A DNA stretch of 64,000 nt from NCBI GenBank assembly GCA_964591315.1, contig CAZQAT010000001.1:81673-145672 (forward strand), read 5' to 3'. The notes beneath the pieces are model-generated. The model did not search any database, was not told the DNA's origin, and was given only the letters and a program-made list of their open reading frames with translations. Below are positions 15,886-38,101 of this stretch, one piece after another. How positions within the stretch are numbered: position 1 is the first letter of the stretch; each line of letters starts with the position of its first letter. This DNA comes from an uncultured Planctomycetaceae bacterium (GTDB taxonomy: Bacteria; Planctomycetota; UBA1135; GCA-002686595). A program made the translations under genes and the position numbers.

Positions 15886-15972
15886 GGTCGGGCGCCGCGG
15901 CGCCCGACCAATCTAACCCGCGTCGCGTGAGGTTCCCTCACCCATTCGGCGCGGCCCGCGCCGCGGGCTGGC

Positions 15973-17720: not shown

Positions 17721-18247
17721 GACGTCACCTCCTCGGACTCCAGGCGGATCTCCACCGCCCCGTGGCGGTGCAGGAGCTCGTGGAACTCGCCGTCGCGGAA
17801 GGCGGCGTCCGCCTGCGCCAGGATCAGGGCGTGGCGGTCGTCGGTGGTGGCCTCGAGCCCCTCCGGCGCACGTCGACCCGGCCACAGCCCCGAGCGCAGG
17901 AGCAGCGCCGCGGCCGTCGCGAGCCCCGCGAAGAGGATCGTCAGCTCGAAGCCCACCACCGCGAAGGCGGCGAACGAGTTGAAGGGCTTGCCGCCCACGT
18001 TGATGGGCCAGCTCACGCCGCTGGACCAGTACTGGAACCAGAAGCCGAGCACGCAGCCGGTGGCCCCGCCGATCAGGGTCACCCAGGGCAGGCGCGAGCG
18101 GCGGATCCCGAGCACGTCGTCCAGGCCGTGGATGGGGAAGGGCGAGATCACGTCGACCACGGGGATGCTCCGCTCGCGGCACTCGGCCGCGGCGGCCAGC
18201 AGGGCGTGCTCGTCCTCGAAGAAGCCGGTGTGCAGGCGGCGGCTCAT
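17717..18247 (-). CDS. actD: Alternative Complex III subunit ActD (DUF3341-like)
   Basis: It begins MSRRLHTGFFEDEHALLAAAAECRERSIPVVDVISPFPIHGLDD and has two C-terminal TM helices. The start overlaps the actC stop (ATGA). Confidence 0.8.
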   Translation of the reverse strand: MSRRLHTGFFEDEHALLAAAAECRERSIPVVDVISPFPIHGLDDVLGIRRSRLPWVTLIGGATGCVLGFWFQYWSSGVSWPINVGGKPFNSFAAFAVVGFELTILFAGLATAAALLLRSGLWPGRRAPEGLEATTDDRHALILAQADAAFRDGEFHELLHRHGAVEIRLESEEVTS

Positions 18248-22600: not shown

Positions 22601-22669
22601 CTCGCCGGGCAAGAGCAGGGAGGCCTCGGCCGCGCGGAGCTCGGGGGGCAGGGGGTCGTTCGGGCTCAC
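19649..22669 (-). CDS. actB: Alternative Complex III subunit ActB (molybdopterin-oxidoreductase-like domain fused to a 4Fe-4S ferredoxin domain)
   Basis: I placed the GTG start just after the actA stop. The Tat signal is SRRAFLRLTGFGLTAG. The C-terminal Fe-S motifs are CIGCSACAVGC, CQQCDHAPC and CVGTRYCANTCP. Confidence 0.9.
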   Translation of the reverse strand: MSPNDPLPPELRAAEASLLLPGEDTDVSRRAFLRLTGFGLTAGALSSCSRAPLRHVVPNLLAPVGTVAGRAYWLATTCAGCSAACGVLAKCRDGRPIKLEGNETHALSRGGLCAVGQAEVLSLYDSRRFTAPQRATDSGGFEATTWSEADAFVAARLDAARASGGAVRLLTGSLHGPAQQAALEAFLEVNPNARHVAYDALSVSALLDAHGLTRGVRALPSFRFDKAEVIASFEADFLGTWISPVAFAAAYAEGRRPDREEGWMSRHVQLEARVSLTGTVADRRLRVAPDDVPAQLFALCRALETRAGAGGRLDGEVEAAPWVEELADELWRARGQALVVCGQNDLQAQLHTAYANELLGAYGRTLSVARPSNQMRGDDRALANLRAELEAGSVELLITSGVNPAYDLPPDVVTAIERAGTHVAHAASLDETVGLADLVLPRPHALEAWGDGEPEVGRWSLTQPALPALRQTRSLARLLASWIGDAREDYDLLRDAWRAHVHPRVAAGEDFQAFFDRALHDGFVQEARQPAEPAFDGAALGAAPTGAAAGGLTLVLHANLAQLDGRHAHNPWLQELPDPITKVTWDNWASLSPARAEQLGLEDGDLVRLVAAEGGPELVLPTLVQRGQHDDVVAVALGYGRIGTDRFAKVGPQWLEGQPTIERGETIGANAALLSELRDGALRHQRGGLRVEAAGGRVDLASTQDHHSLEVPPHVAPEGGEVRNAVRAATFADFQHDPEHALAHGHHLPEAELWPDDHANDGPRWGMSVDLTRCIGCSACAVGCQAENNVPVVGKDEVLRHREMSWMRIDRYFTGGEDDLGAAHQPMFCQQCDHAPCEAVCPVLATVHSTDGLNQQVYNRCVGTRYCANTCPYKVRRFNWFDYPHEDELENQALNPDVTVRTRGVMEKCSFCAQRIQEARSEAVRKGVPLADGDIRVACQQSCPTRAIVFGDLNDPESEVSKLAHRQRSYRVLEELNVKPSVHYLARITNPPSDGHASPEAGHHDG

Positions 22670-22671
22670 GG

Positions 22672-23340
22672 CTACAGGTGGCAGGTGGTGCAGTTGGTGG
22701 AAACGTGGTCCCCGACGCGCTCGCCCTCGAGCGACGCCTCGCCGTGGACGGAGACCCGCCGGGTGCGGTGGCAGTCGATGCACCAGCCCATGCTCAGGCT
22801 CTCCTCCTGGCGCATGCGGTCCATGCTGCGCACGGGGCCGTGGCAGGACTCGCAGGCCACGTCCCGGGCCACGTGCACCCGGTGGTCGAAGTAGACGAAG
22901 TCCGCCATGTCGTGCACGCGCACCCACTCGATGGGGCGCGGCTCGGCGTCCGGACGGGGGTTCAGCTCCTCGTCCAGGCCCAGGGCGTCGTAGAGCTTGC
23001 GCAGCTCCGCCGACTCGATCCGCGCGGGCTCGCGGCCCTCCGCCTCGGCCCGGTCGCGCTCCTCGAGCACCGCGTCGAAGCCGGCGGTGACCGTCTTGTG
23101 GCAGTTCATGCAGAGATCCGCCGGAGGGACCCCCGCGTGGCGGCTGGAGCGGGCGCCGTAGTGGCAGTACAGGCAGTCCATCCCCAGCTCTCCCGCGTGC
23201 AGGCGGTGGGAGAACTCGATCGGCTGCACCGGCGCGTAGCCCTGGTGGTTGCCCGGCAGGCGGACCTCGCTGGTCAGGGCGACCACGACCAGGCCGAGCA
23301 GCAGGCTGCAGAGGCCGAAGATCACGTGGTTCATCGACAT
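22672..23340 (-). CDS. actA: Alternative Complex III pentaheme cytochrome c subunit ActA
   Basis: An N-terminal TM anchor followed by five CXXCH motifs (CLYCH, CMNCH, CESCH, CIDCH, CTTCH). Confidence 0.9.
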   Translation of the reverse strand: MSMNHVIFGLCSLLLGLVVVALTSEVRLPGNHQGYAPVQPIEFSHRLHAGELGMDCLYCHYGARSSRHAGVPPADLCMNCHKTVTAGFDAVLEERDRAEAEGREPARIESAELRKLYDALGLDEELNPRPDAEPRPIEWVRVHDMADFVYFDHRVHVARDVACESCHGPVRSMDRMRQEESLSMGWCIDCHRTRRVSVHGEASLEGERVGDHVSTNCTTCHL

Positions 23341-23352
23341 GGGCGCGTCACC

Positions 23353-24960
23353 TCAGGGGTTCTTGTGATCGGCCTTCGGGCCGAGGTAGTACCACCAGTT
23401 CAGGACCACGCAGACCGCGTAGAAGGCGGCCAGCCCGTACATGGCGTACTCGGGCGTCTTGGCCTTCATCTGCTCGCCGATCAGCTTCGGGATCAGGAAG
23501 GCGCCGTAGGCGGCCACGGCCGAGGTCCAGCCGAGCACCGGGCCCGCCTGCTCCTTGTCGAAGACGATCGAGATCGTGCGGAAGGTCGACCCGTTGCCCA
23601 CGCCGGTGGCGGCGAAGAGGATCACGATCAGCACGAAGAAGGGCATGAAGAACTCCTCCGGCGTCGCGGACTGGTAGGCCTGGGCGGAGTAGTAGCCCAC
23701 ACCGATGGCCGAGAGGGTCATCACGATCGCCACCACCTGGGTCACGATGGCGCCGCCCACCTTGTCGGAGATCATCCCCCCGATGGGCCGGATCAGGGCC
23801 CCGACGAAGGCGCCCACCCAGACGAACATGAAGGTGGCGGGGGCCTCGGGGTTGGGCGTGGTGTGGGTCATCACGCCGTCGACCTCGATGTGCTGGAAGC
23901 CGAAGATGAACTTGATCGCGAGGCCGACCGCGGCGGAGAACCCGATGAACGACCCGAAGGTCATCGTGTAGATGATCGTCATCACCCACGTGTGCTTGTT
24001 GCCGAAGATCTTGTACTGCCGCTCCAGGTTGCCCTTGATCTCCCCGGGGGAGAGGGCCTTCATCAGGACCACGGTCAGGGCGATCACGGCCGGCAGCACG
24101 ATCCACTTGACCCAGGTCAGCTCGGGGAACTGCAGGATCACATAGAGCCCGGCGCCGGCCGTGGCGAAGCCGATCAAGAGCAGCCACGAGATTCGCCCGA
24201 AGCACACCAGCGGGTTCTTGATGTTGGGCGTGACGTGCTCGGTGGTGATGTTGTTCAGCCGCGTCCAGCCCAGGATGGCCAGGGGGATGAGCCAGTACAT
24301 CCACACGAAGCCGGCGCTCGAGAGCCAGGTGTCCGAGCCGGCCTCGATGCGCTTGAAGATCGTGCCGCTCTTCGACGCCAGGGTCATCGGGTCGCCGCTC
24401 AGGGGGCCCACGATGGCTGCCGTCATCCCGAGCGGGATCAGGATCTGCATCGTCGTGACCCCGAAGTTCCCCAGCCCCGCGTTCATCCCGAGCGCGTAGC
24501 CCTGGACCTTCTTGGGGTAGAAGAAGCTGATGTTGGACATCGACGAGGCGAAGTTCCCGCCGCCGATGCCCGACAGGAAGGCCAGGGCCTGGAACACCCA
24601 CAGGGGCGTGTTCCTGTCCTGCAGGGTGATGGCCGCCCCGAGGGCGGGGATCATAAGCAGGGCCGTCGTGAAGACGATCGTGTTGCGCCCCCCGGCGAGC
24701 CGGATGAAGAAGGTGCTGGGGATGCGCAGGGTCGCGCCGGTCAGGCCCGCGATGGCGGTCAGGGTGAAGAGCTCCGACTGGGTGAAGTCGAAGCCCAGGT
24801 TCTTCATCTGGACCGTGATGATCCCCCACATCAGCCAGACGGCGAAGCCGCACAGGAGGCTGGGGATCGAGATCCACAGGTTTCGGTTGGCGATCTTCTT
24901 GCCGGTGGAGTCCCAGAACGTCTCGTCCTCGGGGTTCCAGGTCTTCAGGTCAGCACTCAT
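23353..24960 (-). CDS. narK: MFS nitrate/nitrite transporter NarK
   Basis: I placed the start at MSADLKTWNPEDETFWD. NarK signatures are GFAVWLMW, LTGATLRIP and FLSGIGGGNFASSM. The gene ends only 12 nt before the actA start. Confidence 0.9.
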   Translation of the reverse strand: MSADLKTWNPEDETFWDSTGKKIANRNLWISIPSLLCGFAVWLMWGIITVQMKNLGFDFTQSELFTLTAIAGLTGATLRIPSTFFIRLAGGRNTIVFTTALLMIPALGAAITLQDRNTPLWVFQALAFLSGIGGGNFASSMSNISFFYPKKVQGYALGMNAGLGNFGVTTMQILIPLGMTAAIVGPLSGDPMTLASKSGTIFKRIEAGSDTWLSSAGFVWMYWLIPLAILGWTRLNNITTEHVTPNIKNPLVCFGRISWLLLIGFATAGAGLYVILQFPELTWVKWIVLPAVIALTVVLMKALSPGEIKGNLERQYKIFGNKHTWVMTIIYTMTFGSFIGFSAAVGLAIKFIFGFQHIEVDGVMTHTTPNPEAPATFMFVWVGAFVGALIRPIGGMISDKVGGAIVTQVVAIVMTLSAIGVGYYSAQAYQSATPEEFFMPFFVLIVILFAATGVGNGSTFRTISIVFDKEQAGPVLGWTSAVAAYGAFLIPKLIGEQMKAKTPEYAMYGLAAFYAVCVVLNWWYYLGPKADHKNP

Positions 24961-25001
24961 GGCGCGGTGGGGAGGGAGGGCGTGGTGGTTCCGCGGGAGG
25001 G

Positions 25002-25691
25002 TCAGGAGGACTTCCGGATGCGCTTGCGGTCCCAGTTCCAGACGACGACCTGGGTCTTGCGCCACAGGTAGGGGTTGGGCACGACGAGGACGTGCACCAG
25101 CCGCGTGAACGGGAACACGAGGATGATCAGCCAGGCATTGATGATGTGCGCCTTCACGAGCCACGGCATGGGCGCGATGTAGGACACGTCAGGGTTGAAC
25201 TTCACCAGGGACCAGAGCCAGGGCGTCATGTTCGTTGCGAACCAGGAGCTGCCCCAGCTGTGCTGGATGGAGATCGCTATGCCGGTCACGACCTGGACCA
25301 GCAGGCCGCCGTAGATGAACCAGTCCCCGGGGGTGGTCACCCGGCGCGCCTTGCTGAAGCGGAAGCGCCGGATGACGATGTTCACCAGGCCCGCCAGGGT
25401 GAGCACGGCCACGGCCAGGCCAGTGACCTCCAGCAGCACCAGCCGGAAGGTGGAGGCGTTCCAGCTCAGCAGGGTCTCGGGCAGGAGGAAGGCGAAGATG
25501 TGCCCGGCCAGCACGGTCAGGATCCCGTAGTGGAAGGGGACCGAGGCCCAGAAGTGCTGCTGGTTCTCCAGGAACTGCGAGGACAGGCTCGAGTAGGAGA
25601 AGGAGGCCATCCGGTAGCGCCGAATCGTGACCAGGAAGAACACGACCAGGGAGACGTAGGGCAGGACGCCGAACCAGAGGTAGTCGTTCAT
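25002..25691 (-). CDS. narI: Respiratory nitrate reductase gamma subunit NarI (dihaem b, quinol-oxidising)
   Basis: The 229-aa protein begins MNDYLWFGVLPYVSLVVFFLVTIRRY and contains FHYGILTVLAGH. It follows narJ with a 4-nt overlap. Confidence 0.9.
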   Translation of the reverse strand: MNDYLWFGVLPYVSLVVFFLVTIRRYRMASFSYSSLSSQFLENQQHFWASVPFHYGILTVLAGHIFAFLLPETLLSWNASTFRLVLLEVTGLAVAVLTLAGLVNIVIRRFRFSKARRVTTPGDWFIYGGLLVQVVTGIAISIQHSWGSSWFATNMTPWLWSLVKFNPDVSYIAPMPWLVKAHIINAWLIILVFPFTRLVHVLVVPNPYLWRKTQVVVWNWDRKRIRKSS

Positions 25692-26269
25692 CGCTCGAGC
25701 TCGCTCGGGGCGCCCCCGGCGGGGGCGGCCTCTTCGGAGGGGGTGGAGTGGGCGCCGTCGACGAAGCGTTTCAGACCGCGCAGGACGCCGTAGTAGGGGT
25801 TGTCCTGGTCCCCGAATCCTTCGAGGACCTTGGCCAGGGCCGGGGAGACGACGCCGGAGGCGATCGCTCGGGCTGTGCCCGCGTCGGCACGCGCGAGCAC
25901 CAGGAGCACGTGGGAGATGTGGTCGGGTAGCTCGGCGTTCTCGGTCACGTCGTGCCGCCTCAGGAGGTCGCGCATGCGGACCATGAAGGCGCCGCGGGCG
26001 TAGCTCTCGCCGTACAGGTGCCAGCCCACCTCGAGGGCGCGCTCGGCGTTGGAGTCGAAGGTCCTGGTGAACACCTCCTCCAGGGCGCTGGGGCCGTTCT
26101 CCTGCAGGTACTCGAGCAGGGGCAGCAGGTCCGGACCACGCTCAGGGGCCTGCTCGAGGACCAGTCCGACGTGCTCGGAGAGGGCCGGGTCTTCCCCGCG
26201 GCCGGGGTAGCGCAGGAGCTCCGCCCAGGCGGCGTAGCAAGTGGCGTGGTCGGGCTCGACGCGCACCAT
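25688..26269 (-). CDS. narJ: Nitrate reductase molybdenum cofactor assembly chaperone NarJ
   Basis: A 193-aa acidic helical protein in the position between narH and narI. Confidence 0.8.
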   Translation of the reverse strand: MVRVEPDHATCYAAWAELLRYPGRGEDPALSEHVGLVLEQAPERGPDLLPLLEYLQENGPSALEEVFTRTFDSNAERALEVGWHLYGESYARGAFMVRMRDLLRRHDVTENAELPDHISHVLLVLARADAGTARAIASGVVSPALAKVLEGFGDQDNPYYGVLRGLKRFVDGAHSTPSEEAAPAGGAPSELER

Positions 26270-26272
26270 GGC

Positions 26273-27760
26273 TCAGCTCCGCTTGGGGGCCACACGCTCG
26301 CCGAAGCCCGCGTTGGAGCGGTGCTCGTGGGGGTCCTCGAGCATCTCGATCGCCATCTCGCGCTGGAAGGGCGGGACGACGAAGCGGTCCTCGAAGGTGG
26401 CCAGCGCCGACAGCTTGTAGATGTCCGTGGCCTCCTCCGCGGTCAGGTCGGCCTCCATCAGGGAGCGCTGGGCCTTCTCCTCGTCGATGTCACCGACGGT
26501 GACGTGCCGACGCCAGACCCGCACGGCGAGCTGCTTGCGCAGGGCGTAGCGCAGCTTGCCCAGGTTGCCGCCGGTGAACATGCTGCCCAGGTACTCCATC
26601 GGGGCCCGGGCCTTGTCGATGTCGGCGAAGAGCTCGTCCAGGTCGTTCTTGACCACGTCGCCCTGGGTCATCGACATGACCGGCAGGAGCGGCGGCACGT
26701 AGAAGAGCATCGGGAAGGTGCGGTACTCCACGTGCATCGGGAGAGCGATCTTCCAGTCCTTGACGTACTTGTAGACCGGCGACTTGCGGGCGCTGGCGAT
26801 CACGCCCTCCGGCACTCCGTTGCGCCGCGCCTCCCGGATGACCTGGGGGTCGTGGGGGTCGAGGATCATCTCGCGCTGGGCGTCCACGAGCTCCTCGTCC
26901 TTGAGGAGCGCCATCTCGTGGATCTTGTCCGCGTCGTAGAGCAGGTTGCCCAGGTAGCGGATGCGGCCCACGCAGGAGTGGAAGCAGGCCGGGGCCTGGC
27001 CCGACTCGAGGCGCGGGAAGCAGAGGATGCACTTCTCCGACTTGCCGGTGGACCAGTTGTAGTAGGTCTTCTTGTAGGGGCAGGCCGGGATGCAGGCGCG
27101 CCAGGCGCGGCAGACGTCCTGGTTGACGAGCACGATGCCGTCCTCCCCGCGCTTGTGGAGGGCGCCCGAGGGGCAGGCAGCCACGCAGGCCGGGTTGAGG
27201 CAGTGGTTGCAGATGCGCGGGGCGTAGAAGAACGCGATGCGCTCGATGGCAAGCATCTGCTCGCGCTGCTCGGCGGACAGCCCGTCCATGTTCGGGTCGT
27301 TCTTCGCGTAGACCTGCGAGCCCCCGAGGTCGTCGTCCCAGTTCGGGCCGGACTCCACGTCGATGTGCTCGCCGGTGATCATGGACACGGGCCGCGCCGT
27401 GGGCTGGTCGTCGCCCTCGGGGGCGTTGAACAGGTCCTCGTAGCGGTACGTCCAGGGCTCGTAGTAGTCGTCCATCGACGGCTGAGCCGGGTTGTGGAAG
27501 ATGTTCGGCACGAGCTTGGCCTTGCTCGTCGAGCGCAGCTCGAGCTGCTTGCCGTCGGTCTTCCAGCCGCCCTTGTAGGCATCCTGGTCCTCCCACTTCG
27601 TGGGGTAGCCGGTGCCGGGCTTGGTCTCGACGTTGTTCCACCACATGTAGTCCGTGCCTTCGCGGTCGGTCCACACGTTCTTGCAGGCGATGCTGCAGGT
27701 GTGGCAACCGATGCACTTGTCGAGGTGGAAGACCATCGACACTTGTGAGCGAACGTCCAT
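26273..27760 (-). CDS. narH: Respiratory nitrate reductase beta subunit NarH
   Basis: The N-terminus MDVRSQVSMVFHLDKCIGCHTCSIACKNVW is almost identical in pattern to enterobacterial NarH. Further Fe-S motifs are CNHCLNPACVAACP and CRAWRACIPACP. Confidence 0.95.
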   Translation of the reverse strand: MDVRSQVSMVFHLDKCIGCHTCSIACKNVWTDREGTDYMWWNNVETKPGTGYPTKWEDQDAYKGGWKTDGKQLELRSTSKAKLVPNIFHNPAQPSMDDYYEPWTYRYEDLFNAPEGDDQPTARPVSMITGEHIDVESGPNWDDDLGGSQVYAKNDPNMDGLSAEQREQMLAIERIAFFYAPRICNHCLNPACVAACPSGALHKRGEDGIVLVNQDVCRAWRACIPACPYKKTYYNWSTGKSEKCILCFPRLESGQAPACFHSCVGRIRYLGNLLYDADKIHEMALLKDEELVDAQREMILDPHDPQVIREARRNGVPEGVIASARKSPVYKYVKDWKIALPMHVEYRTFPMLFYVPPLLPVMSMTQGDVVKNDLDELFADIDKARAPMEYLGSMFTGGNLGKLRYALRKQLAVRVWRRHVTVGDIDEEKAQRSLMEADLTAEEATDIYKLSALATFEDRFVVPPFQREMAIEMLEDPHEHRSNAGFGERVAPKRS

Positions 27761-27783
27761 GGATCAGGTCCTTCTGGCTGGGG

Positions 27784-30700
27784 TTACCAGGTGAGCTTGG
27801 GGAGCTTGCGCACGAGGATGTGCGTGTCGCGGTTGCAGCCCGTGGGCCCCCAGTAGTTGAAGTGGTAGGTGAACTGCGCGTAGCCGCCGAGCATCAGGTT
27901 CGGCTTGAGGCGCGTTCGCACGAGGCTGTTGTGGCCGCCGGCGCGTCGGTTGCCCCTGAGGGGTGACTTCGGCACGGAGTAGGTGCGCTCCGGCGAGTGG
28001 TAGATGATGCAGATGCCGCGCGGGATCCTCGCGCTGACCGCGGCCCGCGTAACGACGACGCCGTGGTCGTTGTGGACCTCGACCCAGTCGTTGTCGACGA
28101 CCCCGATCTCCTCCGCGTCCTGGGGGTTGCACCAGAAGGGCTCGACGCCGCGCGAGAGGGTCGACATGCGCTGGTTGTCCCCGTACGTGGAGTGGATGTG
28201 CCACTTCCCGTGGGGGGTCAGGTAGTTCAGCATCAGCGTGCGGCCCTCCTGCTTGCTGAAGTTCAGGTCCGCGTACTGGTGCGGCTGAGGCTTCGGCTTG
28301 TAGGTGGGCAGGTGCTCGCCGAACTGGATGTAGCCCGGGTGGTCCAGGTAGAGGTGCTGGCGCCCGGTCAGGGTGCGCCAGGGCACCATGCGCTCGCGGT
28401 TGTAGGTGAAGGGCGCGTAGGGGCGGCCCTTGTCGCACAGGCCGGACCACATGGGGCTGTTGAGCAGGCGCCGCGGCTGGGCCTGAATGTCGGCGAAGCT
28501 CGTCCGCACGTCGCGGGTGTTCGCGGCCAGGTCGACCAGGGGCATGCCGGTCTTCTTCTCCATGCCCTCGTACGAGCGGTAGGCGAGCTCGCCATTCGTC
28601 ACCGTCGCGAAGCGCAGCACGATGTTGGCGGCGTCCTCCGCTTCCCGCAGGGAGGGGTAGGTGGTGTCGCCCCAGTGCTCCACCGGCGCCGTGGCCAGGG
28701 CCTCGTCGTAGAAGTCCTCGACCTCGTAGTGGGTGCCGTGGGCTCCTAGGCCGTTCTTGCGGACGTCTCGCCCGTAGGAGCAGAACTGCTTGTAGAGGTT
28801 CGGGTAGTCGCGCTCGACGACCTTGAAGCCCGGCATGGTCTTGCCCGGGATTGCCTCGCACTCACCATCGATCCAGCTCTCGATGCGCGGCTGGGCGATC
28901 TCGGCCGGGGAGTCGTGGGCCAGGGGCACGGCGACCACGTCCTTGGTCTTTCCGGGCAGGTGCTTCTCAGCCAGCTCGCTGAAGCGCTGCGAGATCTCGG
29001 CGAAGATGTCCCAGTCGCTCTTCGACTCCCAGCAGGGCGGCACGGCCGCCGAGAGGGGGTGGATGAACGAGTGCATGTCGGTCGAATTGAGGTCGCTCTT
29101 CTCGTACCAGGTGGCCGCCGGCAGGATGATGTCGGAGTACAGGGCCGTGGTGTCCATGCGGAAGTTGAGGTCCACCACCAGGTCCATCTTTCCGGCGGGG
29201 CCCTCCTCGACCCACTCGACGTCCTTCACGGAGTCCTGGGCCATGTCCTCGTTGATCTGGTTCGTGTGCGTCCCGAGGTAGTGGTGCAGGAAGTACTCGT
29301 GCCCCTTGGCGGAGGACATCAGGGCGTTGCCGCGCCAGATCCACCACAGCCGTGGCCAGCACTCCTCGGCGTCCGGACGCTCGATGGCGAACTTCAGGTC
29401 GCGCTTCTTGAGGCGCTCGACCAGGTGCTCGGGGACGTCCTTGCCGGCCTCCTCGGCCTGCTTGACGAGCTCGAGGGGGTTCTCGTCGAACTGGGGGTAG
29501 AACGGCAGCCAGCCGTTGCGCACCGCCCGCACGTTCGAGTCGATCGTGTGCTCGTCGACGATGTTCTTCTCGGGCTGGTCAGCGGGCACCGTGTGGTAGT
29601 CCCGGAAGCTCTTCTCGTAGCGCCACTGGTCCGAGTGCACGTAGTGCCAGCTCGGGCCGTTCTGGAGGCGCGAGGGTCCGTACCAGTCCTTCGAGAGGGC
29701 CACGCTGGCCCAGGACTCCATGGGCGCGAGCTTCTCCTGGCCGACGTAGTGGGCGAGGCCGCCGCCGTTGGTGCCCACGCAGCCGCAGAACACCAGGGCC
29801 TGGATGGCGGCCCGGTACATCAGGTTGGCGTGGTACCAGTGGTTGACGCCGGCGCCGATGATGACCGTGCACTTGCCCTCGGTCTTCTGGGCCGTCACGG
29901 CCCACTCGCGGGCGAAGCGGATCAGGGTGTCGCGGGAGATGCCCGTGTAGCGCTCGGCCCAGGCGGGGGTGTAGACCGTGTCGTCGTCGTAGCTCTCGGG
30001 GTAGTCGCCCTCGAGGCCGCGGCCGACGCCGTAGGTGGCCATCAAGAGGTCGAAGACCGTCGCCACGCGCACCGGACCGTCGGCGGTCTCGATCGTCCGC
30101 ACCGGGACGCCCCGGTGTGTGGTTCCGCCGGCGGCGAAGTCGTCGAAGGCGACCTGGAGCACCCCGTCGTTCTGGTCCAGGAAGGTCAGCTCCGGGTCGA
30201 TGGCGCTTCCGTCGACGCCGTCCTTCAGCTCGAGGTTCCACTTGCCCTGGGCCTCGCCCCAGCGGTGGCCGACGCTGCCCAGGGGCATCTTCGCCCGGCC
30301 GTCGCCGGCGTCCCACATGAGGAACTTCCAGTCCCCGTTCTCCTCGCCGTCGTAGCCCTCCACGCGGCCCGCCCGCAGGAGCTGCCCGGCCTTCCAGCCG
30401 TCGCCCGCCGGCTCGAGCTCGACCAGGAAGGGCGAGTCCGAGAACTGCTTCAGGTAGTCGAGGAAGAAGGGCGTCTTCTCCCCGTGGTGGAACTCGTTCA
30501 GGATCACGTGGTTGACGGCCATCCACCAGGCGCCGTCCTGCCCCGCGTTGAGGGAGATCCACTCGTCCGCGTACTTCGCGACCTGGTTGAAGTCCGGCGC
30601 GAAGACCACCATCTTCGACCCGTTCTGGCGCGCCTCGGCGGCGAAGTGCACGTCCGGGGTGCGGGTCATGTTCAGGTTGGCCCCCATGACCGCCAGGAAC

Positions 30701-31407
30701 TTGGCGTTGAACCAGTCCGCGGACTCGTTCACGTCCGTCTGCTCGCCCCAGGTCTCCGGGGAGGCGTTGGGCAGGTCGCAGTACCAGTCGTAGAAGGACA
30801 GGTTGACCCCGCCCATCAGCTGCAGCATGCGCGAGCCCGCCGCGTAGGAGAGCATCGACATGGCCGGGATGGGGGAGAAGCCGGTGATCCGGTCCGGGCC
30901 GTGGGCCTGGATGGTGTGCACCGCCGCGGCGGCCTGGATGTCGAGCACCGTGTCCCAGTCGGTGCGCCGCAGGCCGCCCTTGCCCCGGGCGCGCTGGTAG
31001 CGGGCGCGCTTCTCCGGGTCGTTCATCAGGCTGCGCCAGGCCTCGACCGGGTCGTCGTGGCGGGCACTCGCCTCACGCCACAGGTCGAGCAGCGCCCCGC
31101 GGATCATCGGGTACTTCACCCGCAGGGGGCTGTAGAGGTACCAGGAGTAGGAGATGCCGCGCTGGCAGCCGCGGGGCTCGTAGGGCGGGATGCCCTCCTG
31201 GATCGACGGGTAGTCCAGGGCTTGCATCTCCCAGGCGACGATCCCGTCCTTGACGTGGATGTTCCAGGAGCACGAGCCCGTGCAGTTCACGCCGTGGGTG
31301 CTGCGCACGACCCGGTCGTGCTGCCAGCGGTTGCGGTAGAACTCCTCCCACTTGCGGTTGGAGGGGTCGACGCGGTCGAGGATGAAGGGGTTCTTACCTT
31401 GGTCCAT
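27784..31407 (-). CDS. narG: Respiratory nitrate reductase alpha subunit NarG (cytoplasm-facing nNar type)
   Basis: The N-terminal signature is [35 protein letters not shown] (FS0 cluster). The protein is 1207 aa and has no functional twin-arginine signal. Confidence 0.95.
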
Positions 31408-31423
31408 GAGGCTCGTAGCAGGC

Positions 31424-32278
31424 TCAGCGTTGGGCGAGGAGGGCGCGGCGCACGGTGCGGAAGCGGCGGCGCCAGAGGACGTCGAAGAGCACCATCAGCA
31501 GGGCCGCCATCAGGATCCCGGCCAGCACGAACTCGAGGGCCGTGGTGGGGGCCTCCACCTGCCCGCTCTCGGCCTCGCGCTGCAGGTAGGCGACCAGGGC
31601 CAGGACCTCTTCGGAGTCCATGGGGCTGTCCGAGAACAGGGGCTGCATCACCACCGAGGGCGGGGAGCTGAGCCAGGCACCGAGGGCCTTGCGCCCCTCG
31701 AGGCGCGAGTAGGCGCCGGTCAGGTCGGGACCCAGGCGCCCGCCGCCGAGACCGTCGAGGCCGCCGACCGCGTGGCAGGAGATGCAGGCCGGGCCGCCGG
31801 CCTCGAACTGCTCCTGGCCGGTGAAGAGCGCCCGTCCGCGGGCCACGTCGACCTCGGTCAGGGGGCGGTCGCTGAGCTGCACGCCGGCGAAGCGCGAGGT
31901 CTCGAGGGCCGACTCGGCGTCGATCAGGTCGAGCAGCTTGCCCGCCAGCTCTCGGTCGCCGGCCAGGGGCGACATGACGGCCCCGTTCGCGTCGGCCAGG
32001 AGCTTCAGGGCGTAGGGATCGCCGCTGTCGATGACTCCCTGGGGATCGAGCATGAAGTCGACCAACCACGCGCGCTCCTGGCGGGTGGAGACGTCCTTCA
32101 GGTCCGGCCCGCTCAGGGCGCCGCCTCCGATCGTGTGGCAGCTCGAGCAGCTGGTCTTGAAGAACTTGATCGACTCCTCGGAGGGCGGGTCCTGGGCCGC
32201 GAGGGGCGCGGCGGTCAAGAGGACCGCGGAGAGGAGCGTGGGGAGGGGCGGTATTCGGAGTCCAGACACGGGGTGCAC
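31424..32278 (-). CDS. Membrane-anchored periplasmic dihaem cytochrome c, first gene of the nar operon (NarC-like architecture)
   Basis: GTG start. The signal peptide is [18 protein letters not shown]. There are two CXXCH motifs (CSSCH, CISCH) and a C-terminal TM segment, [20 protein letters not shown]. The stop lies 16 nt before the narG start. Confidence 0.75.
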
Positions 32279-32310
32279 CTCGGCGTGGGAGGGGAGGTCT
32301 GGACCCCCTT

Positions 32311-32327
32311 GTGCAAGGGGTGTGCCG
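32311..32327 (-). promoter_or_regulatory. Sigma-54 (-24/-12) promoter upstream of the narC-like gene
   Basis: The minus strand reads cGGCACaccccTTGCAc, with GG and GC in exact consensus spacing (TGGCAC-N5-TTGCW). The -12 element ends 34 nt before the GTG start. Confidence 0.6.
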
Positions 32328-32367
32328 CGGCGAGATCGCCAGTGGCGGTGCCCTCAGCGGGGGCGGC

Positions 32368-32408
32368 CTGCATACGCCCGTATGCAGCGGGCCGCGTGCC
32401 GTATGCAC
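32368..32408. promoter_or_regulatory. Candidate enhancer (UAS): perfect palindrome CTGCATAC-GCCC-GTATGCAG plus an extra GTATGCAC half-site
   Basis: Read directly. The palindrome centre is about 50 bp upstream of the -24 element. The same TGCATA(S)-N4-(S)TATGCA architecture recurs at 36181-36198. Confidence 0.5.
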
Positions 32409-32436: not shown

Positions 32437-33861
32437 CTAGCGGAACCTGCCCGGGTCGATCCCGAGCTGGCGCAGGATGCGCTGCAGGGCCGCGCGGGTC
32501 ATTCCGCAGCGCTGGGCCGCCTGGGAGACGTTGCCCCCGGTGCCCTCGAGGGCCCGCTGCACGAACTCCCGCTGGAAGGCCTCCACCGCCTGCTTCTTGC
32601 CCTGCGCGTAGTCGGTCACGTCCTGCGCGCCGCGCGCCGGCCCGGCCTGGCTCCAGCCCTGGGGGCTGAGCCCCAGGTGGTGGGGCAGGAGCTTCTGCCC
32701 ACCGCAGACCACCAGGGCCCGCACCATCGCGTTCTGCAGCTCGCGCACGTTCCCGGGCCAGGGGTGGTCCCGCAGGGCGTCGGTGGCGCTGGCGCTCAGC
32801 TGCGGGGACTCCGCGCCGGGGCCGAGGCAGGTGGCCGCGGCGTCGGAGAGGAAGCGCAGGGCCAGGGGCAAGACGTCCAGGGGCCGCTCGCGCAGGGGCG
32901 GCAGGTGAATGCGCACGACGCTGATCCGGTAGAAGAGGTCCTCGCGGAACTCGCCGCTCGCGATGCGCGCCTCCAGGTCGCGGTTCGTGGCGCACACCAG
33001 GCGAAAGTCGACGGGCACGTCCCGGTCGCCGCCCACCGGGCGTACGACCTTCTCCTCGAGCACCCGCAGGAGCTTGCCCTGGAAGCCGGCGGACATGGAG
33101 CACAGCTCGTCGAGGAAGACCGTGCCGCCCTGGGCCTGCTCGAACAGGCCGGGGTGGTCCCGGTCCGCGCCGGTGAAGGCGCCCTTGCGGTGCCCGAAGA
33201 GCTCGGACTCGAGCAGGGAGTCGGAGAGGGCCGCGGCGTTGACCGCCAGGAAGGGGCGCTCGGGGTGACCGCTGCGCGCGTGGATGGCCGAGGCCACCAC
33301 CTCCTTGCCCGTGCCGCTCTCGCCCTCGACCAGGACCGGGACCGGGCCCGCGGCCACGCGCTCGACGAGCTGCATGACCCGCTGCATGGCCGGGTCCTCC
33401 GCCACCAGCTCGGGCCGCTCGGCGTCCGGGTCCTGGGTCTGGCGCGCAGCAAGGAGCTGGCGCCCGAGCCGCTCGACCAGGGACAGCACCTCGCGGTTCT
33501 CGAAGGGCTTGGTCATGAAGTGCGCGGCCCCGTTCTGCAGGCAGGAGACCGCGGTCTGGATCGTGCCGAAGCCGGTCAGCACCACCACCTCGACCTCCGG
33601 CGCGCGCTCCTTGACCGCCGGCAAGAGCTCGGTGCCGGTCATACGCGGCATCATCAGGTCCGTCAGCACCAGGTCCGGCTGGAAGCGGTCGAGGACCTCG
33701 AGGGCCTCGAGGCCGTCGGCGGCGGTGGCGACCCTTGCGCCGAGGGTGCCGATCAGCTTCTCCAGCCCGCGGCGGATGTCCGTCTCGTCGTCGACCACCA
33801 GCACGCGCAGGCCGGTGATGGGGGGGGAGCTCACGGAGGTCTTCGGGACCGTCTGGGTCAT
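32437..33861 (-). CDS. Sigma-54-dependent response regulator (NtrC family: REC + AAA+ + Fis-type HTH)
   Basis: REC domain: VLVVDDETDIRRGL...LVLTDLMMP. Walker A: GESGTGKEV. Sigma-54 contact loop: GAFTGA. Also present are FLDEL, NVRELQN, and the C-terminal HTH NVSQAAQRCGMTRAALQRILRQLG. Confidence 0.9.
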   Translation of the reverse strand: MTQTVPKTSVSSPPITGLRVLVVDDETDIRRGLEKLIGTLGARVATAADGLEALEVLDRFQPDLVLTDLMMPRMTGTELLPAVKERAPEVEVVVLTGFGTIQTAVSCLQNGAAHFMTKPFENREVLSLVERLGRQLLAARQTQDPDAERPELVAEDPAMQRVMQLVERVAAGPVPVLVEGESGTGKEVVASAIHARSGHPERPFLAVNAAALSDSLLESELFGHRKGAFTGADRDHPGLFEQAQGGTVFLDELCSMSAGFQGKLLRVLEEKVVRPVGGDRDVPVDFRLVCATNRDLEARIASGEFREDLFYRISVVRIHLPPLRERPLDVLPLALRFLSDAAATCLGPGAESPQLSASATDALRDHPWPGNVRELQNAMVRALVVCGGQKLLPHHLGLSPQGWSQAGPARGAQDVTDYAQGKKQAVEAFQREFVQRALEGTGGNVSQAAQRCGMTRAALQRILRQLGIDPGRFR

Positions 33862-36116
33862 GGGGTGGTGGGGAGCGCCGTGGATTCGTGGACGGGGGCC
33901 GTGTCGAGCAGCAGCCGCACCCGGAAGTGGCTGCCGCGGGGGGAGCTGTCCAGGAGCTGGAGGGTGCCCCCGTGCATCTCGGTGATGCGCCGCGCAGTGG
34001 GGAGGCCGAGGCCGGTGCCCTCGCCGCGCTCCTTGGTGGAGTAGAAGGGGCGGAAGATCTTCTGGCGCGCCTCCTCGGGGATGCCGGCGCCGGTGTCGTG
34101 GATGTCGACCACCGCATAGCCCTCCTCGGCGCGGGTCGCCACGCGCACCTCGCCGCCGTCGGCGCCGATGGCCTGGATGGCGTTCACCAGGAGGTTGACG
34201 AAGACCTGCCGGAGCTGGATCTCGTCCATGTTGACCTCCAGGGACCGCTCGGCGAGGTCGAGCTCGATGCGGACGTTCGAGCGCTCCCGCAGGAGGCGCA
34301 GGAAGCCCGTCACGTCCTCGACGGTCGTGTTGACGTCCACCGCCCCCAGGTCCGGGGTCTGGTTGTTCGAGTAGTCGAGCAGGTCGCGGATCGTGCGCTT
34401 GCAGGACTCCACGTTGCGCTGGATGACCTCCACGTTCTCCTGCAGCCCCGGGTGTTGTGGGAGCTCGGTGGCCAGCATCTGGTTGTAGAGGCTGATGGCC
34501 GCCAGGGGGTTGTTGAGCTCGTGGGCCATGACCGCCGCCACCTCGCCCAGCACCGCCAGGCGCTCCTGGTGGATCTGGCGCTCGTCCTGGGTGATCCGGT
34601 CGCCGATGTCGCGGCTGACCAGCACGCGACCCGAGAGGCCGCGGGCGTCCGGGGCCAGGCGCGTGGCGTGGATCTCGAAGACGCCGCCTCCGATCTCGAC
34701 CACGCAGGAGCGCGAGCCGACGTCCGGCGAGAAGAGGCAGGTGCGGCAGGCGGTGCGCTCCTCCTCCGCGTTGGCGCAGGTGTGGTGGGAGGTCAGCTCC
34801 ACGCGCTCCGTGCGCAGGGCCTCGAGCAGGGGCTCGGCGGCGTCGTTGTGGACCACGAGCTGACCCTCGGGGTCGAGCACCACCAGCCCGTCGCGCATGG
34901 AGGAGATCACCTTGCGCAGGCGGTCGCGCTCGAAGGCCAGGGCCTCCTGGCCCTCGCGCAGGGCGTCGGCCGTGCTCTCCAGGTGGTGGGTGCGCTGCTC
35001 GATGGCGCCCGCCATCATGTTGAAGGCCGAGGCCAGCTCGCCGAACTCGTCCTTCTGGTCGAGCTCCACCCGCACCTCCAGGTCGCCCCCCGCCAGCCGC
35101 CGGGCCGCGCTCGCCAGGTGTTGCAGGGGCCGGGTCAGGAAGCTCATCGGCAGCAGGAACAGCACGCAGGCGACCACGCTCAAGATGGCCCCGAAGCCCA
35201 TGAAGCGGCTCTGCAGGCCGGCCACCGCGGCGCGGATGCCCTCGCCCGGCAGCGCCACGTGCACGGCCCAGCCCGCGGCGGGCATGGGAAAGCTGTGGTG
35301 CAGGGCGTCCGCGCTGTCCTGGCTGCCCTGGGCGTTCACCAGCCGCAGGCCGAAACCGGAGCGCACCAGCTCCGAGTCCGGGCCCGGTCCGTGGCTCGTG
35401 GTCAGATCGGGATGCACGGCCAGGCGCTGGCCCCCGGCGTCCTGCAGCTCGAGCCCCGGGCGGCCGCTGGAGGCCTCGGAGTCGAAGCCGCTGGTCTGCA
35501 GGGCCCCGACGATCCAGACCCCGGGGTGCACCCAGGCGATCAACTGGCCCAGCGGCTGGCGCCCCTCCCGGCTGTGGAGAGGGGTGCCGAGGGCGATGCG
35601 CGGGTGGGGGGCCTCCTCCCCGGCGGGGATCCAGTTGGAGAACCAGGGGGAGCCCTCGCGGTGCGGGCCCCGGGGGAGGTCGGCGGGGGAGGACCCGGTG
35701 GTGTGCACCAGGGCACCGTCCGGCCCGACGATCGCCAGGTCCATGAAGGCCGGCTCGATCGAGAGCTTGTTCTGGACGAGGTGCTGCTGCAGCTCCCCCT
35801 CGAGCACCGCGCGCACCCGGTCGCCCTCCAGGAGGGCCTCCGCGTGGTCGCGGATGAAGCCGTCGGAGGCGAAGTCCTGCAGGCGCGAGCCCAGGAGGTC
35901 CAGCCGCCCGTCGAGGGCGGTGGCGTAGGCCCGGGCCTGGAACTCGAGCCGGCCGCCGACCTCCAGCTCGAGGGCCTCCTTGGCGGAGGCCGACACGAAG
36001 TACCCCCCGACCCCGAAGGTCGCCACGCAGACGCTGACGAACATCAGCGCCAGCTTGCTGCGGAGGGTCATTCCACGCATGGGGATCATCTTATCGTCTT
36101 GCTGGTGGAGGGGCAC
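33858..36116 (-). CDS. Membrane sensor histidine kinase (periplasmic domain, HAMP, PAS-like segment with four Cys, HisKA/HATPase)
   Basis: There are two TM segments and the HAMP sequence PLQHLASAARRLAGGDLEVRV...EFGELASAFNMM. H-box: MAHELNNPLAAI. N/G boxes: NLLVNAIQA, DTGAGIPEE, GTGLGLP. The stop overlaps the regulator start (ATGA). The exact start is uncertain: GTG at 36116, or ATGs at 36089, 36080 or 36071. Confidence 0.85.
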   Translation of the reverse strand: MPLHQQDDKMIPMRGMTLRSKLALMFVSVCVATFGVGGYFVSASAKEALELEVGGRLEFQARAYATALDGRLDLLGSRLQDFASDGFIRDHAEALLEGDRVRAVLEGELQQHLVQNKLSIEPAFMDLAIVGPDGALVHTTGSSPADLPRGPHREGSPWFSNWIPAGEEAPHPRIALGTPLHSREGRQPLGQLIAWVHPGVWIVGALQTSGFDSEASSGRPGLELQDAGGQRLAVHPDLTTSHGPGPDSELVRSGFGLRLVNAQGSQDSADALHHSFPMPAAGWAVHVALPGEGIRAAVAGLQSRFMGFGAILSVVACVLFLLPMSFLTRPLQHLASAARRLAGGDLEVRVELDQKDEFGELASAFNMMAGAIEQRTHHLESTADALREGQEALAFERDRLRKVISSMRDGLVVLDPEGQLVVHNDAAEPLLEALRTERVELTSHHTCANAEEERTACRTCLFSPDVGSRSCVVEIGGGVFEIHATRLAPDARGLSGRVLVSRDIGDRITQDERQIHQERLAVLGEVAAVMAHELNNPLAAISLYNQMLATELPQHPGLQENVEVIQRNVESCKRTIRDLLDYSNNQTPDLGAVDVNTTVEDVTGFLRLLRERSNVRIELDLAERSLEVNMDEIQLRQVFVNLLVNAIQAIGADGGEVRVATRAEEGYAVVDIHDTGAGIPEEARQKIFRPFYSTKERGEGTGLGLPTARRITEMHGGTLQLLDSSPRGSHFRVRLLLDTAPVHESTALPTTP

Positions 36117-36169: not shown

Positions 36170-36198
36170 GCTATGCGGGGTGCATAGCGGGCTATGCA
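36170..36198. promoter_or_regulatory. Candidate enhancer (UAS): GCTATGC-GGGGT-GCATAGC overlapping TGCATAG-CGGG-CTATGCA
   Basis: Read directly. There are three TGCATA-type half-sites about 60 bp upstream of the sigma-54 promoter at 36250-36266. Confidence 0.5.
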
Positions 36199-36249: not shown

Positions 36250-36266
36250 CGGCACAGGGCTTGCGT
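36250..36266 (+). promoter_or_regulatory. Sigma-54 (-24/-12) promoter upstream of the narK-DoxX fusion gene
   Basis: The sequence is cGGCACagggcTTGCgt with consensus GG/GC spacing. It lies 46 nt upstream of the ATG at 36311, which has a GGAGA Shine-Dalgarno. Confidence 0.6.
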
Positions 36267-36310: not shown

Positions 36311-38101
36311 ATGGAAGTCCAGAACAAGGCCACGCGCATCGAGCTCTTCAGCCTGCGGACCCCGCAGATGCGGGCCTTCCACATGTCGTGGTTCTCCTTC
36401 TTCCTCTGCTTCTTCGCCTGGTTCGGCATCGCCCCCTTGATGCTGGTCGTCAAGGAGGAGCTCGGGCTGACGAAGGCCCAGGTCGGGAACACGATCATCG
36501 CCTCGGTGGCGATCACGATCCTGGCGCGCTTCGTGATCGGGGCCCTGTGCGACCGGGTCGGACCACGCAAGAGCTACACCTTCCTGATGGTCCTGGGGTC
36601 GATCCCGGTGATGTGCATCGGGCTGGCGGACAGCTACACCACCTTCCTCTTGTTCCGGCTCGGGATCGGGGTGATCGGTGCCTCCTTCGTCATCACCCAG
36701 TACCACACCTCGGTGATGTTCGCCCCCAACTGCGTGGGGACGGCCAACGCCACCAGCGCGGGCTGGGGAAACCTGGGTGGGGGGGTGACCCAGATGGTCA
36801 TGCCGCTCGTGTTCGCTGGCTTCCTCGGGCTGGGCTTCGACGAGAGCGCGAGCTGGCGGCTGGCGATGGTGGTCGCAGGCGCGGTCTGCTTCCTGGTGGG
36901 CATCGCCTACTACTTCTTCACCCAGGACCTGCCCGACGGCAACTTCAAGGACCTGCGGGCCCAGGGCAGGCTCACGGCCAAGGAGAAGTCCAACGGGACC
37001 TTCTGGCTGGCGGCCCGGGACAAGCGGGTCTGGGCCCTGTTCCTGATCTACGGCGCCTGCTTCGGCATCGAGCTGACGATCAACAACATCGCCGCGATCT
37101 ACTACGCCGAGAAGTTCGAGCTGGGGCTGAAGTCCGCCGGGCTCGTGGCCGGCCTCTTCGGCCTGATGAACATCTTCGCCCGCACCACGGGGGGCATCAT
37201 CGGGGACAAGTTCGGCCAACGGGGGGGCCTCAAGGGCCGCGTGCGCTGGCTGTTCATCGCGGTCTTCGTCGAGGGCATCGCCCTGATCCTCTTCTCGCGC
37301 ATGGACGTCCTGCCCGTGGCGATCGGCACGATGATCGTGTTCAGCCTCTTCGTGCAGATGTCCGAGGGGGCCACCTACTCGGTGGTGCCCTTCGTCAACA
37401 AGAAGGCCCTGGGCTCGATCTCGGGCATCGTCGGCGCCGGCGGCAACATGGGCGCCGTGGCGGCGGGCTTCCTGCTGCGGGCCGAGGGGCTGACCTACTC
37501 AACGGCGCTCATGATCCTGGGCTGCATCGTGCTGCTGTTCTCCTTCGCGACCTTCCTGGTGCGCTTCAGCGCCGAGGACGAGGAGGCGGCCGCCGCGGAG
37601 CACGCCAAGGCCCTCGAGGAGCGGGCGCGCACGCGCAAGAAGCCGCGCTTCGAGCTGCCCCGGCCGCGGCCGACCCGCCGCCGCCTGACGCCCATGACCG
37701 TCCTGCGGGTCTACCTGGGTGTGGCGCTCATGATCAAGGGCATCTACTACATCACCAACATGGGCGACCTCGAGGCCCAGCTCGGCGAGAACTTCGGGGA
37801 GACCCAGAACGTGATCGCCTGGTTCGTGGTCTTCGCCCACGCGGTGGGGGGCGCGAGCCTGGCCCTGGGCTTCGCCACCCGCTGGGTCTCGGCCCTCAAC
37901 GCAGTCGTCCTGGCGGGGGCCACGGTGCTGCACCTGGTGGGCTCGGAGCTGATGATGGTGGAGAACCTCGAGCTCCAGTTCGCGGCCCTGGTGCTGATGA
38001 CCCTGATCGTCTTCACCTGGCAGGGAGCGGGCCGCTTCTCCCTCGACACGCTGGTGTGGGGGGACGAGAACGGACAGGGCGCACCACCGGCGCAGGCCTG
38101 A
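36311..38101 (+). CDS. narK: NarK/NRT2-type MFS nitrate transporter fused in frame to a C-terminal DoxX-like four-TM domain
   Basis: I placed the start at MEVQNKATRIELFS. MFS/NarK motifs are FHMSWFSFFLCFFAWFG and GWGNLGGGVTQ. A basic linker (RKKPRFELPRPRPTRRR) leads into LRVYLGVALMIKG...HAVGGASLALGFATRW...WQGAGRFSLD, typical of the DoxX family. Confidence 0.85.
   Translation: MEVQNKATRIELFSLRTPQMRAFHMSWFSFFLCFFAWFGIAPLMLVVKEELGLTKAQVGNTIIASVAITILARFVIGALCDRVGPRKSYTFLMVLGSIPVMCIGLADSYTTFLLFRLGIGVIGASFVITQYHTSVMFAPNCVGTANATSAGWGNLGGGVTQMVMPLVFAGFLGLGFDESASWRLAMVVAGAVCFLVGIAYYFFTQDLPDGNFKDLRAQGRLTAKEKSNGTFWLAARDKRVWALFLIYGACFGIELTINNIAAIYYAEKFELGLKSAGLVAGLFGLMNIFARTTGGIIGDKFGQRGGLKGRVRWLFIAVFVEGIALILFSRMDVLPVAIGTMIVFSLFVQMSEGATYSVVPFVNKKALGSISGIVGAGGNMGAVAAGFLLRAEGLTYSTALMILGCIVLLFSFATFLVRFSAEDEEAAAAEHAKALEERARTRKKPRFELPRPRPTRRRLTPMTVLRVYLGVALMIKGIYYITNMGDLEAQLGENFGETQNVIAWFVVFAHAVGGASLALGFATRWVSALNAVVLAGATVLHLVGSELMMVENLELQFAALVLMTLIVFTWQGAGRFSLDTLVWGDENGQGAPPAQA

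Follow-up and report, generated by a model that had tools for sequence, protein, structure and literature searches.

Organization of the nar locus

The window (the whole stretch of 64,000 nucleotides that was analyzed) carries genes for nitrate respiration on both sides of a sensor kinase–response regulator pair. The gene assignments are based on Pfam matches, supplemented by start comparison for the narC-like gene and by direct translation for the regulator. The distinguished genes of the minus strand are as follows:

33858..36116, minus strand: cognate sensor histidine kinase with periplasmic Cache-like, HAMP, PAS-like, HisKA and HATPase domains
32437..33861, minus strand: NtrC-family response regulator (enhancer-binding protein)
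31424..32269, minus strand: NarC-like dihaem cytochrome c, first gene of the operon
25002..31407, minus strand: narG (31407..27784), narH (27760..26273), narJ (26269..25688) and narI (25691..25002)
15973..24877, minus strand: narK (24877..23348; MFS transporter), followed by ACIII-type genes
22672..23340, minus strand: actA, followed by actB (to 19649) and actC (19659..18244)
17142..18182, minus strand: cytochrome c gene, followed by the last membrane gene (17145..15973)

The predicted NarG protein scores 1502 bits against the equivalog model TIGR01580 (cut-off 1084) and its gene is followed by those of proteins matching PF14711, PF02613 and PF02665, which identifies the complex as a NarGHI respiratory nitrate reductase. 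A scan of positions 14000 to 32300 revealed neither terminator-like nor sigma-70-like sites. In the absence of such a break, the label "nar-ACIII operon" used in the sequence-only reading seems reasonable for this putatively co-transcribed cluster, and narK and the ACIII genes probably lie on the same transcript as narC-narGHJI. The narK-act gene order also occurs in relatives.

The gene preceding narC had been described as encoding a GAFTGA-containing sigma-54 activator, and its product is indeed a complete response regulator of the REC-AAA+(GAFTGA)-HTH_8 type. It contains the domains PF00072, PF00158 (219.6 bits), PF25601 and PF02954 that define the NtrC class, a phosphoacceptor candidate Asp68 within the motif DLMMP, the Walker A sequence GESGTGKE, the GAFTGA loop and a C-terminal HTH of the Fis type. 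When compared with the NCBIfam equivalogs NtrC, AtoC, ZraR, GlrR, NtrX and NorR, the protein remained below all cut-offs, the best match being NtrC (396.5 bits versus a cut-off of 558.6). Since it falls below the cut-off of every named equivalog, we assign it to an unnamed subfamily and do not consider it an NtrC ortholog.

The kinase gene overlaps the activator gene by 4 nt. Within the PAS-like segment of the kinase, Cys447, Cys457, Cys460 and Cys471 (H-H-x-C...C-x2-C-L-F...R-S-C) are invariant in all 24 orthologs compared, and this four-cysteine segment could be an Fe-S or metal sensor. Residues 447-471 correspond to positions 34704-34778 of the window and follow the pattern C-Xn-C-X2-C-X10-C, in which the stretch between the first and the second cysteine varies from 9 to about 40 residues across the orthologs. 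Cys572 is also invariant in 24/24 orthologs.

The proposal of sigma-54 control had been made dependent on the presence of rpoN, and the genome encodes two such genes. Both were recognized by PF04552 matches above the cut-off, and both proteins contain region I, the HTH and the RpoN box. The paralogs are located at C57:27211-27687 and C146:4767-5234 of the genome (G000) and comprise about 538 and 443 aa, respectively, counted from the first start codon.

The probable promoter region upstream of narC

The activator gene, whose stop codon occupies positions 32439..32437 of the minus strand, is separated from narC by 160 nt. Three elements were distinguished within this region:

32311..32327, minus strand: predicted sigma-54 (-24/-12) promoter PnarC, C-GGCAC-ACCCC-TTGCA-C
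32368..32387, both strands: predicted enhancer (UAS) dyad CTGCATAC-N4-GTATGCAG, centred 51.5 nt upstream of the -24 GG
32401..32408, minus strand: third half-site GTGCATAC, starting 21 nt upstream of the first half-site of the dyad and in the same orientation

Direct reading of the strand verified the element cGGCAC-N5-TTGCAc at 32327..32311, for which -24/-12 spacing had been claimed. Its doublets are arranged as GG-N10-GC, i.e. one helical turn apart, which is the canonical sigma-54 spacing. Compared with TGGCACG-N4-TTGCW, the element (CGGCACA-CCCC-TTGCA) matches at 14 of the 16 counted positions (12 specified, 4 N), and the two departures are T to C at -26 and G to A at -20. PnarC is correctly oriented towards narC and is conserved in the orthologous promoters. 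The distance of 34 nt to the narC-like start given in the sequence-only reading had to be revised, to 32 nt if translation begins at GTG 32278 (the start of the longest ORF) or to 41 nt if it begins at GTG 32269. The latter is probably the true start, because the closest relative has a TTG start at this position, preceded by GAGGTGCCCC, and because a GAGG ribosome site is located at 32281..32278; GTG 32278 overlaps this probable ribosome site. Transcription from PnarC is predicted to start near 32300-32303 of the minus strand.

With up to one mismatch the sigma-54 core was found twice in the 64-kb window versus 2.8 expected occurrences, so there is no enrichment, and the exact sequence GGCAC-N5-TTGC occurs 21 times in the whole genome. 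As a chance control, spacings N2-N9 of GGCAC...TTGC were compared genome-wide, and N5 was not favoured over the others. The core taken alone is therefore without statistical weight, and the argument rests on its pairing with the palindrome and on conservation.

The palindrome at 32368-32387 is perfect, as had been reported, with an 8-4-8 structure that reads CTGCATAC-GGGC-GTATGCAG from 32387 to 32368 on the minus strand. Its described position "about 50 bp upstream" of the promoter holds for the distance from the dyad centre to GG, while the gap between the palindrome itself and GG is 41 nt. The additional half-site was also found where it had been placed (GTGCATAC, 32408..32401 of the minus strand), and its offset of 21 nt from the first half-site of the dyad equals two helical turns. 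The dyad is a predicted docking site for a dimer of the adjacent activator.

The signals of a classical nar promoter were sought in the same DNA. No FNR box (TTGAT-N4-ATCAA) was detected at up to 3 mismatches, in agreement with the sequence-only reading; no NarL 7-2-7 heptamer pair was present at fewer than 4 mismatches in the promoter regions scanned, and neither intergenic region contained sigma-70 -35/-10 elements. The locus thus does not have the features of an FNR/NarL-controlled sigma-70 nar promoter. The accompanying remark that nar operons are classically controlled by sigma-70/FNR plus NarL/NarP holds for enterobacteria only. Sigma-54 is already known to control related respiratory reductases (PMC3884062, PMC4641369).

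A second predicted promoter upstream of narK-DoxX

On the other side of the kinase gene the same pair of elements precedes a divergently oriented transporter gene:

36170..36198, both strands: predicted sister enhancer GCTATGC-GGGG-TGCATAG-CGGG-CTATGCA, a dyad with an adjacent third half-site
36250..36266, plus strand: second predicted sigma-54 promoter C-GGCAC-AGGGC-TTGCG (core 36251-36265)
36311..38101, plus strand: divergent NarK-family nitrate/nitrite transporter fused to DoxX (Pfam), starting at ATG 36311

The sister dyad TGCATAG-CGGG-CTATGCA (36181-36198) is abutted by a half-site at 36170-36176, a layout that is repeated before narK in genome G007 and others. It is situated 52 nt upstream of the second core, or 61.5 nt when counted from the dyad centre. 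The transporter scores 311.1 bits against NCBIfam TIGR00886, 0.6 below the cut-off of 311.7, and is a likely member of this family although the formal cut-off is missed. Its N-terminus, MEVQNKATRIELFSLRTPQMRAFH by direct translation, agrees with that of the narK genes found behind the same motif pair in relatives. The C-terminal DoxX domain (PF07681) is in frame, and several relatives have, at the same position, a gene whose product has a matching N-terminus. We infer that narK-DoxX is the second target of the proposed regulon.

When the genome (4.93 Mb, 70.5% G+C) was searched for TGCATAC-N4-GTATGCA with up to 2 mismatches, only two sites were found, both at this locus, whereas about 0.01 sites per genome are expected by chance from base composition. 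Within 130 nt of each of the two palindromes lies one of the 21 cores of the genome, in the correct orientation, a coincidence with a chance probability of about 8e-8. The palindrome-to-core distance is 40-53 nt for both copies, and both cores lie ahead of the nitrate genes that flank the kinase-regulator pair. An enhancer of this class is expected to comprise more than one dyad-symmetric site, roughly 50-150 nt upstream of -24, and to be restricted to its regulon; here a dyad and a half-site are combined, the dyad centre has the required distance from GG, and the motif is confined to two loci in the genome.

Conservation of the element pair in Planctomycetota

Orthologs of the activator (52-70% identity) were identified in 26 of 174 genomes of the family and in 31 of 401 sampled genomes of the phylum, representing at least 11 families. 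One of them, of 61% identity and located on a contig of G080, was the only true ortholog retrieved by a search of genome contigs with the regulator, in which generic enhancer-binding proteins predominated. The gene order HK-EBP-(narK)-narC-narGHJI-narK-act is retained in 21 of the 25 fetched loci, and in most relatives the narC-like gene lies behind the promoter. The order regulator, dyad, -24/-12, narC was also seen in three other families (f54, f69 and f72).

We tabulated 31 palindrome–promoter pairs from about 25 genomes, 20 before narC, 8 before narK and 3 unclassified, using a selection rule that itself imposed GG, TG and no more than 2 mismatches; the promoters compared are phylogenetically related, and the counts are not independent events. 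Their dyad consensus is TGCATAS-N4-STATGCA. The GCATA and TATGC cores are kept in 29-31 of the 31 sites and the GGCAC and TT-G cores in 28-31, with the GG-N10-G register conserved. Variation is seen in the 4-nt spacer, in the DNA that separates the elements and in how far the dyad centre lies from GG (50.5-115.5 nt). The palindrome, the additional half-site and the -24/-12 element persist together in orthologous promoters from many genera and several families. At least 19 of 21 narC promoters have a half-site [T/C]GCATA[C/G] 21 nt upstream of the dyad; narK promoters lack a half-site at this offset, and those of the window and of G007 have an abutting one instead.

The two promoter classes also differ in the -12 element, which is TTGC in 8/8 narK promoters and in 7/20 narC promoters, the remaining narC promoters departing from the sigma-54 consensus with TTGA, TTGT or TTGG (e.g. 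G068, G069, G083, G084, G133 and G134). The regulator gene of G011 (C10, about 9035-10730) is separated from narC by about 1.9 kb of additional sequence containing an opposite-strand ORF, and the dyad, the half-site and the promoter have remained with narC.

The dyad-to-promoter distances cluster near 50, 60, 71, 81, 93, 106 and 115 nt, with a period of 11-11.5 nt (Rayleigh p about 1e-6). Because the compared promoters are related, this phasing is only suggestive of a dependence on the face of the helix.

Alternatively, the palindrome might act at the RNA level instead of as a DNA site, by folding into a hairpin that terminates or stabilises the regulator mRNA at its 3′ end or that serves as a leader structure. 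It lies 50 nt past the regulator stop codon and could fold into an 8-bp stem closed by a 4-nt loop. A scan, however, revealed neither a terminator nor a T-run at the palindrome, and conservation applies to the sequence rather than to the pairing: at position 7 the arms are complementary in 15 of the 31 sites and non-complementary in 16. Such independent variation of this position in the half-sites fits a protein site and not an RNA hairpin. Moreover, the dyad is also found in the divergent intergenic region ahead of narK, where it is behind no gene, and upstream of nar operons that are unlinked from the regulator. We therefore consider a hairpin extremely improbable and a protein-binding site the preferred interpretation.

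Another possibility is that the palindrome is the operator of a dimeric regulator acting with sigma-70, for example a CRP/FNR-family or Rrf2/NsrR-type protein of altered specificity, and that the -24/-12 element is fortuitous. The 7-N4-7 geometry of the dyad does resemble FNR-type sites, and the number of -24/-12 cores alone does not exceed chance. Yet -35/-10 elements are missing from both intergenic regions, and the spacing between dyad and promoter ranges from 50 to 116 nt, unlike the fixed positions of class I/II activator sites or operators. Furthermore, the -24/-12 element is conserved in register at 31 promoters, and the motif tracks an enhancer-binding protein, as described below. An operator of this kind is very improbable in our judgement, and a site for a sigma-54 activator is favoured.

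The motif follows the activator

The dyad (up to one mismatch) was detected in 22 of the 26 family genomes that encode a regulator ortholog and in 14 of the 148 that do not (Fisher p 9e-15). The former contain 38 sites and the latter 17, or 0.115 per genome, which equals the rate obtained with a reversed-pattern control (0.13 per genome). The 4 regulator-positive genomes without a dyad at this threshold are represented by fragmented assemblies or have diverged sites. The dyad of G044, counted among the regulator-negative genomes, is on a short contig that also carries part of narG, and the regulator gene may just be missing from the assembly. Another regulator-negative genome has two identical copies of a near-match to the dyad, TGCATACCCGCGTAGGCA, separated by 3.5 kb (G043:C45:56922-56939 and 60475-60492). 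NarG is encoded in all 26 regulator-positive genomes (p 1e-20).

This association does not depend on linkage. G007, G080, G053 and G155 encode the kinase and the regulator away from nar, and their narC-narG operons nevertheless keep the dyad and the -24/-12 element; in G155 narK also carries both. Conversely, both elements are absent from nar operons in genomes or at loci without a regulator ortholog, as observed in G138 and for members of a second clade of NarG in the same family, with about 60% identity (G018, G102, G110, G115 and the second copy of G068). The loci of this clade (G018:C39, G110:C22, G115:C96, G102:C99 and G068:C43) have the order narK-cytochrome-narG. G068 contains both nar types, and in G110 a different enhancer-binding protein (41% identity) is encoded upstream. 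The occurrence of the motif is thus tied to its presumed cognate activator, as expected of an enhancer.

Since the genome encodes about 12 enhancer-binding proteins, the assignment of the palindrome to this particular activator rests on adjacency and co-occurrence. The promoter could be sigma-54-dependent while its palindrome is read by another of these proteins, with the adjacent two-component system controlling something else. On the other hand, enrichment of the palindrome is limited to genomes that encode an ortholog of the adjacent regulator, the palindrome stays with nar even where the regulator is unlinked, and synteny of the regulator with nar or narK is seen in 21/25 loci. Both partners of the proposed contact are also conserved: the recognition helix GLTRAALQRI[LM]RQ is nearly invariant across the orthologs, to the same degree as the core of the half-site. 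Co-variation of the helix with the variant half-site TGCATTC of family f72 was looked for, and the helix was found to be nearly invariant. Control by a different enhancer-binding protein is, in our opinion, quite improbable, and the adjacent regulator is the preferred candidate.

Proposed mechanism

Every prediction made at the sequence level by the sigma-54/enhancer interpretation holds, and the support comes entirely from comparative genomics. We conclude that the 160-nt region is very probably the sigma-54 promoter and enhancer of the nar operon, activated by the adjacent two-component regulator. What we infer is that the regulator is phosphorylated and binds the DNA, where transcription starts and which signal is sensed.

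According to the proposed mechanism, the membrane histidine kinase (36116..33858) would phosphorylate Asp68 of the NtrC-type regulator (33861..32437). The activated regulator would then bind the dyad TGCATAC-N4-GTATGCA together with the additional half-site 21 nt upstream of it, occupying three half-sites that face the same side of the helix, and oligomerisation would follow, with assembly of the AAA+ ring. Its GAFTGA loop could contact the closed complex of sigma-54 RNA polymerase at GGCAC-N5-TTGCA, about 50 nt downstream, and ATP hydrolysis would open the promoter, allowing narC-narGHJI-narK and, probably, the ACIII genes to be transcribed. The second sigma-54 promoter, that of the divergent narK-DoxX gene, is predicted to be driven by this regulator as well, which would make this a two-promoter regulon in the genome.

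The invariant cysteines and the Cache-like domain of the kinase make a redox or oxygen input, perhaps together with a periplasmic ligand, plausible. The signal is probably anoxia or redox state, perceived through the four-cysteine PAS-like segment, and the Cache-like domain may possibly respond in addition to a ligand in the periplasm, for instance nitrate or nitrite.

A broader and distinctly tentative reading is that, throughout Planctomycetota, one dedicated two-component system replaces both the FNR and the NarXL halves of nitrate regulation. It is conceivable, if doubtful, that the kinase integrates oxygen or redox state via an Fe-S or metal centre (NreB-like in principle) with periplasmic nitrate/nitrite via the Cache-like domain. 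Equally speculative is an output in the form of an ATP-dependent, tightly off sigma-54 switch. This switch might, again tentatively, co-express nitrate import, NarGHI, the NarC cytochrome and the ACIII-type complex. Finally, the non-canonical -12 sequence (TTGA) at many narC promoters might tune leakiness differently from the narK promoters, which we likewise regard as a doubtful possibility.

Comparison with known systems

At enteric glnAp2, which is controlled by NtrB-NtrC, the activator site is TGCACCA-N3-TGGTGCA, several sites are located upstream of a -24/-12 promoter, and oligomerisation is driven by phosphorylation. The planctomycete activator shares the domain architecture of NtrC, and the dyads of both are bounded by TGCA...TGCA. 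The half-site and the N4 spacer are different, however, the kinase is a membrane protein whose PAS-like segment is rich in cysteines, and the targets serve respiration and not nitrogen assimilation.

PcrS/PcrR(/PcrP) of Azospira suillum PS, which acts with RpoN on pcrABCD, likewise consists of a histidine kinase and a REC-AAA+-HTH_8 regulator encoded beside the operon of a Nar-type reductase, and its target, like nar here, is a respiratory reductase of the Nar type (type II DMSO-reductase family) (PMC3884062). The pcrABCD promoter has an RpoN motif, and rpoN and the regulator are genetically required (PMC3884062). The Pcr system differs in that it controls a periplasmic perchlorate reductase in Betaproteobacteria, includes an extra PAS protein (PcrP) and has no reported TGCATA dyad (PMC3884062). 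In Desulfovibrio vulgaris, the GAFTGA response regulator DVU0621 (NrfR-type) also activates a respiratory nitrogen-oxide reductase operon, nrfHA (DVU0624-0625), from a sigma-54 promoter, but the target is a cytochrome c nitrite reductase, the context is nitrite stress, and the binding motif and the kinase differ (PMC4641369).

NmpRSTU of Myxococcus xanthus resembles the planctomycete system in having an NtrC-like regulator, NmpR, with paired dyads upstream of sigma-54 promoters of respiratory-chain genes (PMC11841059). These dyads, GCGCA-N5-TGCGC, are about 14-15 bp apart and serve a response to oxygen status; the motif, the signalling proteins and the oxidase-related targets are different, and nitrate reductase is not involved (PMC11841059). 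NorR is a further close functional analogue (PMC1274295).

In Escherichia coli the same structural genes, narGHJI and narK, are controlled by FNR and NarXL/NarQP at sigma-70 promoters, and there, too, a two-component system is dedicated to nitrate respiration (PMC1274295). The planctomycete locus differs in its regulator, which is of the NtrC and not the NarL/FixJ class, in its predicted ATP-dependent sigma-54 activation, and in having no FNR box, NarL pair or sigma-70 promoter.

No description of a sigma-54-dependent narGHJI promoter was found in full-text literature searches. In a survey of Planctomycetota MAGs, genes labelled "s54" and "flgS" are shown next to nar-ACIII-like clusters in the legend of a figure, with no analysis of promoters (PMC10732223), and narGHJI is not reported in a 2025 cross-phylum survey of sigma-54 regulons (PMC12316311). 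Planctomycetota are abundant in sediments, wastewater and soils and carry nar-ACIII clusters (PMC10732223). The predicted regulon, activator subfamily and site motif are new, and the device itself, an NtrC-class enhancer combined with a sigma-54 promoter, is a standard one. Judging from the conserved element pairs, this wiring appears to recur across Planctomycetota.

Significance

To our knowledge, nearly all information on how nitrate respiration is regulated comes from Proteobacteria, Firmicutes and Thermus, and we know of nothing for Planctomycetota. The cis-element pair and its candidate regulator provide a testable regulon, and the pair may serve as a sequence signature to predict narG expression in metagenomes and metatranscriptomes. 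The region would also constitute a compact anoxia- or nitrate-responsive promoter module that is probably very tightly controlled. With the predicted promoters, respiratory nitrate reductase would join the list of sigma-54 targets, through a mechanism that is itself conventional, and a gap in the understanding of how nitrate respiration is controlled outside the model phyla would be filled.
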